Source: a virus
Reading direction: 5' to 3' (one strand)
Virus genome (UHGV): UHGV-0107646
Length of the DNA stretch: 31,828 nucleotides
Shown here: one piece after another, positions 6,001 to 9,000 of the stretch
How the letters are laid out: the number at the start of each line of letters is the position of its first letter
How positions within the stretch are numbered: position 1 is the stretch's first letter
Position numbers: made by a program

Positions 6001-9000
6001 AATACAGAGCCGTGTTTATTGAGTCGGTATTCAGAGTCTGACCAGAAATTATTAATCTGGTGAAGTTTTTCCTCTGTCATTACGTTATGGTCGATTTCAA
6101 TTTCTATTGATGCTTTCCAGTCGTAATCAATGATGTATTTTTTGATGTTTGACATCTGTTCATATCCTCACAGATAAAAAATCGCCCTCACATTAGAGGG
6201 CAAAGAAGATTTCCAATAATCAGAACAAGTCGGCTCCTGTTTAGTTACGAGCGACATTGCTCCGTGTATTCACTCGTTGGAATGAATACACAGTGCTGTG
6301 TTTATTCTGTTGTTTATGCCAAAAATAAAGGCCGACTATGCGGCCTGAAATTACTTAACCAATGATGCTGCATATTCGATAAGGTAAAGCTTTGGGGCCA
6401 GCCAAATTTTTAACCAAGTCATATTGGTTACTACACCAATAATAAAAATCCCCCACAGAGTCAAAACTCCAACCAATGGCATGATAAGAAGGTTAATATC
6501 TCCTTTGCTATCCCAAACCATTGTCGGCCTGTATTTGGGATTTCCCCTCTCCCATGAGTATCCTTCATCACCGATTTTACCTGTCTCAACTCTTTGGCAC
6601 TGCTTCTTCATAAACCAGAAAACCAGTGGGATTGTTAGAATGGCTATTAATGTTTTAATCAGACTGTCAACCATATTCCATAGCAGCAACTGATGAACAA
6701 CATCAGGAATCTGCGCTTGGCTGAATGAAACAGCCGCGTCTATTCCATTGCTGGCTTTTTGCAGTAGTTCTACGAGAATCTTGTTTGCTTGTTCTTCCAT
6801 ATATCCCCTTGATTGTAATAAGCATGAAATTATTTACGGCCAAAAAATAAAGGCCACCATCAGGCAGCCTTGTAGTTCTGTTTACCAAGTTCTCTGGCAA
6901 TCATTGTCGTCGTTCGTATTGTCTACACCATTGATTCTTATCAATAGTCGTAGTCATACGGATAGTCCTGGTATTGTTCCATCACATCCTGAGGATGATC
7001 TTCGAACTCTTCAAATTCTTCTTCCATATCTCACCTCAAATAAGTGGTTTGCTGCCTAATTTCATTTTCTGGCGACCAACACAAGTCATCTTGCTGTCAG
7101 TTGTTTGGATTTCCGGTAGCCTGCCGCGTAAAGAGCTACGTTTGGAAGACAAGTTGAGCCTTCATATTTTCTGGTCAGCGTTGTCAGTGTTATTACTTCT
7201 GCTCTCATTGCTGGTTTGCGCTTGCATTGCAAGACCACTCGTGAAGGGGTTGGCCTGTGTAGCTTGTCGGAGCTGATCGCCTTCTGACTTTGCAGATTTG
7301 CGCGACGAGCTCTACGGCGAGAAGCTGCGGTGCCTTTAAATTCTGTTTTTCTGGACATAGATTCCTCCCGAATAAACTTTGGCGATGCAATCTCGAAGCT
7401 CCTCCTGAGACGGTTGCTTCGGCATTGCATCCCACAGCTCATGTGGTTGGGTGATCTGGCTTTTCAGCCACGTAGTCGAGAGTTCGACGTTGTTTAAAGA
7501 GCCTGCCAGTCTGTTCCATTTAGCTTCCAGCGTCCTGCTGATGTGTTTAGTATCACCGCCGGAGGTATTTTCGTCAACACCGCTAGAGATAAAATATTAC
7601 CGCAAATGGTTATGTGCATGTTTTTACTATTGATTTATTTTTTTAAAGTTTTGCAGAGCTAGTCTGGATGTGTAGGAGCTGAATTGCGCAATGTGATAAG
7701 TGTGATTTATATTTATTCAATAAATACAATTCGTTAGGTGTGTTTTTGACGGGCTGATGGTAAAAGAAAACCCGGCGCGGAGGCCGGGCTGAAGGGGCTC
7801 ATTCTAATCGATTGATTTAATATCCCATTGAGGTCGAGAAACCAGAGTGTATCTGGGCTTGCCCTTACCAACAGTTTTTTTCAGGAACGTGGCTGTTGCA
7901 ACGCTTCCTAAGTGCTTGTTTATAATATCTGGGTCATCTACAGCTTTGTCAATGCTAGCGGTTCTGATATCAGTGTTACCTAAAACTATAAATTCACATT
8001 GGCGCTTGTTAGGAAGAGTTCCCAAAAATATAACGTTCTCAATAATTTTTTCCTGCTGAATGTTATCATTGCTGAGATGTTGATATACAGCTTCAAGCTG
8101 TTTTGGCTCTCTAAAAACGATGCTAAAACCTTGGCTTTTAAGTGTAAAAACTGTTTTATTTTCATGCAGATAATGAATGAATGCTCTGATTTTATCTAAG
8201 GCCCGAGAGTCTAAGTTTTCTATAGCATCAGACAATTCTTCATCATCATTATCCAAGCTTGCCTGAAATATTTTTCTGGCCTTATTAATAGCTTTTGCTA
8301 CTGGGGTTTCTTCATCGAATTCAAGAGGAGCATCAGGTCTAAACTCTTCAAGTACGAATCCGAAAGAACCACGGGCTGACGCGGTAATCATGAGATGATT
8401 ATTTTCTATGTTTGGTATCTTGCCTGATGCAGGAAGTGGGCCATTGAAAGAGGTTGCCAAGTAAGCTATTGCATCATTAAAACAAGATATAGCTTTTGTT
8501 CCAAATACTGCTGAAATGCCATGCGTGCCAACTACTGTTGGGCCTCTAAAAGTTAACACAGCATGCGTAGGTTCATGTTCTCGAACGTCAGCTTGTGAAA
8601 TTAATCGCTCAACTTTCTCCAGACGGTCTTCTAAGCTTTTTCGGCTAATAGAATGACTTGTTGGCATATTTTTTAATAGATTACTTATTTGCTCGCGCTC
8701 ACTGAGAGCGAAAACATAATCATTACGATTCATTGTTTGACCCCCTCAGTAGTAGCCGAATTAAGTATAGTCATTGCCACAACATCAAGTTGTGGGTTTA
8801 ACGGGATTTGGATAAATCCCTTCCACGACAGATCGCGTCTATGTGCCCACATACTGTACCAATATACAGTCATTTCAACAAGCTCATGACTTGGTAGATT
8901 AAGTTCTTGGAAGTAGGAATCTACGAAAAACTCCTTCTTAACAAAATCATGATCAAATAGCTCTGGCTTTCTACCGATTACGATTGCATCATTATCGCCA

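Follow-up and report, generated by a model that had tools for sequence, protein, structure and literature searches.

In phage H-19B, nutR carries two hairpins and is a functional site of action for the N antiterminator, which contacts RNA polymerase through its C terminus (PMC3526286). In lambda, N requires a GNRNA boxB loop with a GNRA-type fold, the U7-A13 pair, and residues Arg6-11 of the protein, whereas Glu9 is dispensable (PMC12027372). The window analyzed here, a stretch of 31,828 nucleotides from the virus genome UHGV-0107646, is a lambda-like Escherichia coli prophage in which an N gene (7086..7358, minus strand) is accompanied by nut sites in both early transcripts, namely nutL in the pL transcript (7503-7457, minus strand) and nutR in the pR transcript, just after cro (10417-10462, plus strand). 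This region is very probably the N/nut antitermination module of the prophage, in the allele of the Sakai Shiga-toxin (Stx) phages (VT2-Sakai/Sp5 and Stx1-Sakai/Sp15), an allele also carried by many non-Stx lambdoid phages.

The N gene comprises 90 codons and a stop codon and was placed by Pfam, PHROG, PGAP, and alignments. Its product scores 111.1 bits (E=4.1e-32) with the Pfam family N_peptide (PF25694), for which the gathering threshold is 27.9, and also matches PHROG 271, “anti-termination protein N-like” (E=3.8e-25), and PGAP annotates a 273-nt gene for a “transcriptional antitermination N peptide” (WP_000088205); the allele is already present in RefSeq and is known both in kind and in sequence. 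Along with these matches, which pass the family thresholds, the gene has the other marks of a lambdoid N, specifically an arginine-rich motif (ARM), the first position in the pL operon, and nut sites in both transcripts. The open reading frame (ORF) called automatically here begins too far upstream, at ATG 7442 (118 aa, 7086-7442). That start has no Shine-Dalgarno (SD) sequence, falls outside the Pfam match, which begins at residue 27 of the 118-aa ORF, and is replaced by ATA in VT2-Sakai and POCJ13, whereas the ATG at 7358-7356 is preceded by the SD sequence GGGAGG at 7369-7364 and is the start of the 273-nt PGAP call; the true start of N was therefore assigned to ATG 7358.

The predicted arginine-rich N-terminal motif is present as SRRRARRANLQSQ at residues 13-25 and aligns with the ARMs of the lambda, phi21, P22, and HK97 N proteins; it is followed by a central RKP region and a C terminus of the P22/H-19B type. 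The protein ends in VALYAAGYRKSKQLTAR, and its last 21 residues, CLPNVALYAAGYRKSKQLTAR, are those of HK97 N and close to those of P22 gp24, which bears out the assignment of this end to the P22 gp24/H-19B type. Over the full length, N is 100% identical to the N of phage 2B8 and 98.9% identical to those of VT2-Sakai, the Stx1-converting phage, and Stx2 phage 1717, but only 59% identical to HK97 N, 42% to P22 gp24, 32% to phi21 N, and about 30% to lambda N. The claim that this is not lambda N held when the proposed alignment was run: no full-length similarity to lambda N was found, the 27 of 90 identical residues being limited to the ARM and the central RKP motif, with an unrelated C-terminal third. 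No PDB entry was matched in a sequence search with N, even with the limit set at E<=10, as the N peptides of known structure are both short and diverged.

The two nut sites share a single plan. The window contains exactly two copies of a 20-nt core, CTACGTSGCTGAAAAGCSAG, against 0 expected by chance, one downstream of pL on the minus strand and the other downstream of cro on the plus strand. In nutL, the order is boxA, ACAAC, spacer hairpin, UACG, and boxB. The boxA, read from the sequence at 7494..7503 (minus strand), is GGCUCUUUAA as RNA and GGCTCTTTAA as DNA and is identical to the boxA of phi21 nutL; its core, GCUCUUUA at 7502-7495, is kept in all 80 related loci described below, while the preceding base varies (G, T, or A). 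The spacer hairpin, GUCGA-ACUC-UCGAC (7475..7488, minus strand), was identified by folding and comparison as an H-19B-type “reducer”; among related loci its loop varies in both sequence and length and its stem is retained. A “plus-strand terminator” called at 7475-7488 was rejected as this same hairpin read from the wrong strand. By folding, the boxB of nutL, UGGCU-GAAA-AGCCA (7457..7470, minus strand), consists of a 5-bp stem, closed by U-A, and a GAAA tetraloop of the GNRA family, and its 4-pair stem core has an energy of -4.7 kcal/mol; the boxB loop of POCJ13 nutL is GCAA, likewise GNRA. All three elements that had been proposed for nutL, a boxA, an extra small hairpin, and a boxB with a GAAA loop, are present.

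In nutR, the order is boxA, UAACAAC, spacer hairpin, UACG, and boxB. The boxA, CGCUCUUUG (10417..10425, plus strand), lies 8 nt past the cro stop codon; the spacer hairpin, GGAC-AUUC-GUCC (10433..10444, plus strand), is identical to that of H-19B nutR; and the boxB, UCGCU-GAAA-AGCGA (10449..10462, plus strand), has the stem of the H-19B nutR boxB, whose loop is GACAA. An extra small hairpin of this kind is known from nut sites of the H-19B lineage, and Neely and Friedman, writing on alternative NUT RNA structures in Molecular Microbiology in 2000, reportedly described the H-19B spacer dyad as a “reducer” in which the pairing matters and the sequence does not. In H-19B, disruption of a single arm reportedly abolishes activity, whereas restored pairing or removal of the dyad is tolerated. 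An Rfam scan of the whole window at the gathering thresholds gave no nut or boxB match, as no such family exists. Its sole match was the lambda cIII thermoregulator RNA (Lambda_thermo) at 5669-5727 (minus strand, 88.5 bits).

By its cI, Cro, and operator sequences, the immunity region around this N is of the lambda type (imm-lambda), in agreement with the original prediction. Leftward on the minus strand, cI (10108-9395) is followed by a two-gene cassette (9308-7804), a terminator (7790-7769), oL/pL, nutL, and N, and past N by a remnant of another N gene, orf28, and a remnant of ral; to the right of cI lie, in order, oR/pR, cro, nutR, and cII. At the protein level, cI is identical to lambda cI at 224 of 237 residues, with zero changes in residues 4-60, a segment that includes QSGVGALFN, which we take to be the DNA-recognition helix of the helix-turn-helix, and Cro is identical to lambda Cro at all 66 residues. 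Each of the six operators (oL1-3 and oR1-3) occupies its place and differs from its annotated lambda counterpart at 0-4 positions. Both pL (TTGACG -17- GATACT; 7549..7577, minus strand) and pR were found at their expected positions by a promoter scan, and pL is overlapped by oL1 (7567-7551) and oL2 (7591-7575), with oL3 at 7611-7595 (minus strand; 2, 1, and 2 mismatches to lambda, respectively).

Homology mapping by pairwise BLAST delimited the module within this region. Homology to lambda covers oL/pL (7530-7788, 76%), ending at the pL transcript start, and cI-oR-cro (9395-10423, 91%), ending inside the nutR boxA; none was found between 7052 and 7530. N and nutL are instead covered by homology to VT2-Sakai (7022-7543, 97%), and nutR with cII by homology to phage 2B8 (10416-10843), while phi21 homology extends from the pL leader through boxA (7475-7543, 88%) and resumes over 6894-7088 (93%), reaching the N stop codon. 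By sequence comparison, the right-hand junction of the N/nutL module is a 14-nt linker at the pL transcript start, CATCAGCAGGACGC (7530..7543, minus strand), which is common to lambda, phi21, P22, HK97, and VT2-Sakai, and the homology to VT2-Sakai, phi21, and P22 begins at 7543. The left junction, identified by phi21 homology and translation, is a non-coding stretch of 51 nt left over from the 3′ end of a phi21-type N (7036..7086, minus strand), which reads TCVGRQKMKLGSKPLI and a stop, directly follows the N stop codon, and runs into the SD sequence of the next gene. The same remnant stands behind N in VT2-Sakai, HK97, and H-19B, where it runs into the SD sequence of whichever gene follows; it is a recombination scar that is now a conserved linker. 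With N/nutL bounded by two conserved linkers and nutR by its boxA, this is the classic layout for lambdoid module exchange, and it supports the view that N, nutL, and nutR form a specificity module that would recombine independently of immunity. The predicted swap of the N-nut module thus stands, with two amendments to its detail: the closest relative is the N of VT2-Sakai (Sp5/Sp15) and not that of H-19B, and nutR was swapped as well.

The same comparisons bear on whether the ORF could be lambda N in diverged form, working with lambda-type nut sites, with no module swap at all. Some local resemblance is real: 9 of 16 ARM positions agree with lambda, the central RKP motif resembles that of lambda N, and boxB is like that of lambda in its 5-bp stem, closed by U-A, and its GNRA-type loop. 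However, identity to lambda N is confined to the 27 residues already mentioned, with an unrelated C-terminal third; lambda DNA homology stops at 7530 and resumes only at 7052, the stretch between being 97% identical to VT2-Sakai; and in lambda the nut sites have a pentaloop boxB and lack a spacer hairpin. At the level of sequence, this explanation is already refuted, and we give it virtually no weight.

To describe the distribution of the module, 80 IMG/VR loci encoding an N at least 97% identical to this one were collected, and their nut sites were recovered by a pattern search. Every nut site recovered had the same nutL or nutR core and a GAAA loop, but only 7 of the 80 loci had a lambda-type cI/cro, and the sequence 5′ of the nutR boxA fell into at least five classes; the N/nut module thus occurs with several immunity types. 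In complete E. coli genomes, the module was present at >=80% coverage in 759 of 5,426 (about 14%). The segment 6850-10450 of the window was found at 100% identity in three complete E. coli chromosomes and at >=95% coverage in eight, and in strain E26 the prophage integrase adjoins ybhC. That N/nut and immunity assort independently is a textbook case of lambdoid mosaicism and is not new; what the locus offers is a set of clean, base-level junctions of module exchange, at the pL transcript start, in the nutR boxA, and in the phi21-N remnant after the stop codon.

The neighboring ral is a deletion remnant, and RefSeq marks pseudogenes elsewhere in the identical prophage, which might suggest a cryptic prophage whose module is defunct, with N or the nut sites out of use. 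Yet the N ORF is intact and is 100% identical to the N of a phage record, that of 2B8; and nutL and nutR are likewise intact, with cores identical to those of other loci, as are the promoters, operators, cI, cro, cII, replication genes, Q, and int. Such decay is thus very improbable.

Several points weigh against the reading of the locus as a working N/nut module. The predicted nut hairpins can fold, but on folding energy alone these short structures are not significant (z about -1.4 to -1.5), and the minimum free energy (MFE) structure of both nutL and nutR instead joins boxA to the boxB loop and 3′ arm, with the spacer hairpin inside this pairing. The covariation counts given below come from an alignment whose hand-set register biases them toward the proposed structure. 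Host-factor requirements are not confidently transferable from the H-19B-type N, the one studied by experiment, given an identity of only 59% between the proteins and a different boxB loop. Finally, no functional data on this N allele were found in the searchable literature, and the antitermination mechanism accordingly rests on homology to the N proteins of lambda, P22, and H-19B.

Because folding energies alone were not significant, support for the hairpins was sought by comparison. The set comprised 14 distinct nut sequences (nutL and nutR of the window, IMG/VR variants, POCJ13, H-19B, and HK97), anchored on the conserved ACAAYG and CUACG flanks and padded with N; an automatic MAFFT alignment placed the spacer hairpins out of register, and the hand-registered alignment was substituted for it. 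In the two-hairpin structure, 100% of the 134 cells were paired, with compensatory changes in 6 of 10 pairs (4 of 5 in the spacer hairpin and 2 of 5 in boxB), whereas pairing in slid-partner controls did not exceed 46%. Three unrelated spacer stems occupy the same position, each of them perfectly complementary, which is hard to explain otherwise despite the hand-set register. The spacer dyad behaves as expected for the H-19B type, in that its pairing is kept rather than its sequence.

The helix between boxA and the boxB 3′ arm, by comparison, was 85% paired, and its covarying pair (column 1 with column 51) was broken in 4 of the 14 sequences; it is unproven and less well supported than the two hairpins. 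It could still represent a functional switch that hides boxA and boxB until N or Nus factors bind. This pairing is the MFE structure of both nut sites, and the four bases with which boxA begins recur in the boxB 5′ arm (GGCU in nutL and CGCU in nutR), so that from nutL to nutR the first boxA base and the boxB stem change together. On the other side, in addition to the broken pair and the lower pairing, natural nutL variants with T or A at the first boxA position show no compensation, and the local hairpins would be expected to form first during transcription. We consider such a switch unlikely and retain the two-hairpin structure for both nut sites.

By the sequence, pL is under lambda-type operators, and its transcript contains nutL, a structured leader, and the 90-aa N gene; by analogy with the described systems, the module would operate as follows. 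Between boxB and the N ribosome-binding site, the leader contains a long hairpin (7372..7442, minus strand; MFE -39.6 kcal/mol for the 107-nt leader, z = -3.35), to which a role in N translation or processing may be ascribed by analogy, as the lambda N leader has an RNase III-processed hairpin at the analogous position. PGAP also calls a “frameshifted hypothetical protein” over nutL and the leader, which is probably an annotation artifact. The arginine-rich helix of N would bind the boxB hairpin, with its GNRA tetraloop closed by U-A. The features that lambda N requires have counterparts here in the GAAA loop, the U-A pair, and RRRARR, with Ala at the position of Glu9; however, this boxB is a true tetraloop without an extruded base, and Lys replaces Trp18 in N. 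The central region of N, LQCKRKPAMRAE, may recruit NusA, since in the alignment it resembles LSLNRKPKSRVE of lambda N, which presumably lies within the NusA-binding segment, and the P22/H-19B-type C terminus may contact RNA polymerase, as in H-19B.

BoxA may recruit NusB/S10, and the spacer hairpin would shorten the effective distance between boxA and boxB, as proposed for H-19B; the dependence on NusB, S10, and boxA may nevertheless differ from that of H-19B, because boxA is near consensus here, unlike in H-19B. The modified polymerase would then read through terminators downstream of N and in the pR operon and so reach Q. A terminator scan supplied the presumed targets: on the pL side, the first intrinsic terminator downstream of N (6850..6871, minus strand) and further ones at 6346-6329, 6203-6182, and 5763-5744 (minus strand), and, for antitermination from nutR, a strong intrinsic terminator between the replication genes and nin/Q, at the position of tR2 (13828..13851, plus strand), beyond which Q lies at 17589-18212. 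The pR-side targets likely include the tR1 region as well. Exchange of the module would take place at the short conserved linkers, namely the pL transcript start, the nutR boxA, and the phi21-N remnant. N antitermination, nut sites, the H-19B spacer hairpin, and module assortment are all established, and the locus matters little as a discovery; the Stx1 and Stx2 phages of Sakai, however, use the same N for their early transcription, so its host-factor needs bear on toxin-phage induction.

The type of ARM in N co-varies with the type of boxB loop across three phage lineages, independently of the rest of the protein. An ARM of the form xRRR[A/E]RRAxLQ accompanies a GNRA tetraloop (GAAA, or GCAA in POCJ13 nutL) in this prophage and VT2-Sakai, in Shigella POCJ13, and in Salmonella SF10, whereas the ARM RSRRRERLKAKALANG, with LKAKALANG, accompanies a GACAA pentaloop in H-19B and HK97. 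In Salmonella phage SF10, an H-19B-like N body carries the ARM RRRERRAALQ, and its boxB is CGGCU-GAAA-AGCCG. We tentatively suggest that this ARM together with a U-A-closed GNRA-tetraloop boxB might constitute a distinct N-boxB specificity class, apart from those of lambda, P22/H-19B, and phi21, which would differ from the H-19B nutR boxB by the loss of a single extruded loop base and by replacement of the ARM, and which would move between N bodies (the 90-aa VT2-Sakai type, POCJ13, and SF10). No description of a VT2-Sakai-type nut site or a tetraloop boxB was found in the literature, although key older papers lie outside the coverage of the search. If orthogonal to the lambda and P22 pairs, this natural N-boxB pair with a canonical GNRA tetraloop could provide an extra RNA-tethering tool and a simple case of peptide-RNA co-evolution. 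Yet another ARM, NRRRARRQAQREQ, was observed in the N proteins of mEpX2 and HK140, and a CCCGC-CGAAAU-GCGGG hairpin lies upstream of mEpX2 N.

A doubtful but conceivable alternative to a separate class is that N and its nut sites have functionally the same specificity as those of H-19B/HK97 and are mutually active with them, the differences in loop and ARM being neutral drift. The spacer hairpin, TACG linker, and boxB stem of nutR are identical to those of H-19B nutR, the last 21 residues of N are those of HK97 N, and GAAA is the GNRA core of GACAA minus the C, all of which would fit such interchangeability. Drift is less easily reconciled with the co-variation of ARM and loop type in three separate lineages (VT2-Sakai-type, POCJ13, and SF10) relative to H-19B/HK97, or with the tetraloop that every nut site recovered among the 80 loci encoding this N retains.

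Several neighboring features were also observed. The cII gene (10548-10847, plus strand) is a mosaic, mostly phi21/2B8-like (92-95% nucleotide identity), of which only the last ∼60 nt (10782-10843) match lambda cII (92%). At the position of lambda rexA/rexB, the two-gene cassette (7804-9308, minus strand) with its terminator (7790-7769) encodes a DUF6932 protein (8730-9308; Pfam PF22014), which matches the PADLOC candidate PDC-M63A (E=2e-10), and a 309-aa protein (phrog_18731) without a Pfam or PADLOC match; the cassette is absent from the corresponding place in lambda, HK97, VT2-Sakai, and 2B8 and may be a prophage-expressed defense pair. Downstream of N, orf28 (7025-6939) is intact and lies upstream of ral, of which only a remnant is left (6850-6950, minus strand) that reads MTTTIDKNQWCRQYERRQ and a stop and is called by PGAP as a 19-aa Ral-family peptide; an overlap of 28 nt between the segments that BLAST aligned to lambda suggests the loss of about 76 nt from its interior. 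The prophage resembles phi21 in lacking sieB, a gene that lambda and P22 carry between N and orf28. Between the terminators at 6871-6850 and 6346-6329, a 149-aa ORF with hydrophobic stretches (6351-6800, minus strand; phrog_3054, no Pfam match) lies within a 500-bp insert that is absent at this position from lambda, phi21, VT2-Sakai, and 2B8, and it looks like a moron.

Among known systems, the module is closest to those of VT2-Sakai (Sp5), the Stx1-converting Sakai-type phage, Stx2 phage 1717, and the non-Stx phage 2B8, whose N proteins are 98.9-100% identical to this one. Its nutL matches that of 2B8 exactly and departs from that of VT2-Sakai at one base, in the loop of the spacer hairpin; the phi21-N remnant is the same as in the Sakai-type Shiga-toxin phages and 2B8, and nutR and cII are common with 2B8. 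These phages have other cI/cro/operator sets, in contrast to the lambda-type set found here.

The H-19B and HK97 sites share the hairpin between boxA and boxB, flanked by ACAAYG...CUACG, and H-19B nutR (CGCUAUUUUCACAAUGGACAUUCGUCCUACGUCGCUGACAAAGCGAG) equals nutR of the window from the spacer hairpin onward except in the boxB loop, a GACAA pentaloop in H-19B and one base shorter here. In the boxA region up to the hairpin, however, 7 of 16 positions differ between the two nutR sites, and boxA is near consensus in the window but degenerate in H-19B. The nutL sites of H-19B and HK97 have the same layout with another stem, GAUUC/GAAUC, and a P22-type boxB, GCGCU-GACAA-AGCGC. The N proteins of H-19B and HK97, nearly the same in sequence, are 127 aa long, compared with 90 aa here, and neither the GACAA pentaloop nor a 127-aa N with the ARM RSRRRER, both typical of the H-19B type, was found at this locus. 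HK97 also combines a lambda-like cI (90% nucleotide identity to the cI here) with an H-19B-type N.

The more distant systems each share only parts of the module. P22 has the C-terminal LP.VALYAAGxRKSKQxTAR and a 5-bp boxB stem closed by U-A, and its pL leader and boxA are similar, but its gp24 is 42% identical to this N, and its nut sites have a GACAA pentaloop and no spacer hairpin. Lambda shares the position and logic of the N gene, the ARM core RRR.RRA..Q.Q, the central RKP motif, and a boxB with a GNRA-type fold and a U-A closing pair; it differs in its N (about 30% identity, an unrelated C terminus, and Trp18 where Lys stands here) and in its nut sites, which have a pentaloop boxB and no spacer hairpin, as opposed to the tetraloop and spacer hairpin of this prophage. 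Phage 21 shares the pL leader through boxA (88%), the ARM prefix KGTA.SR, and a similar cII, whereas its N is 32% identical and its nut sites have a longer boxB stem with another loop and no spacer hairpin.

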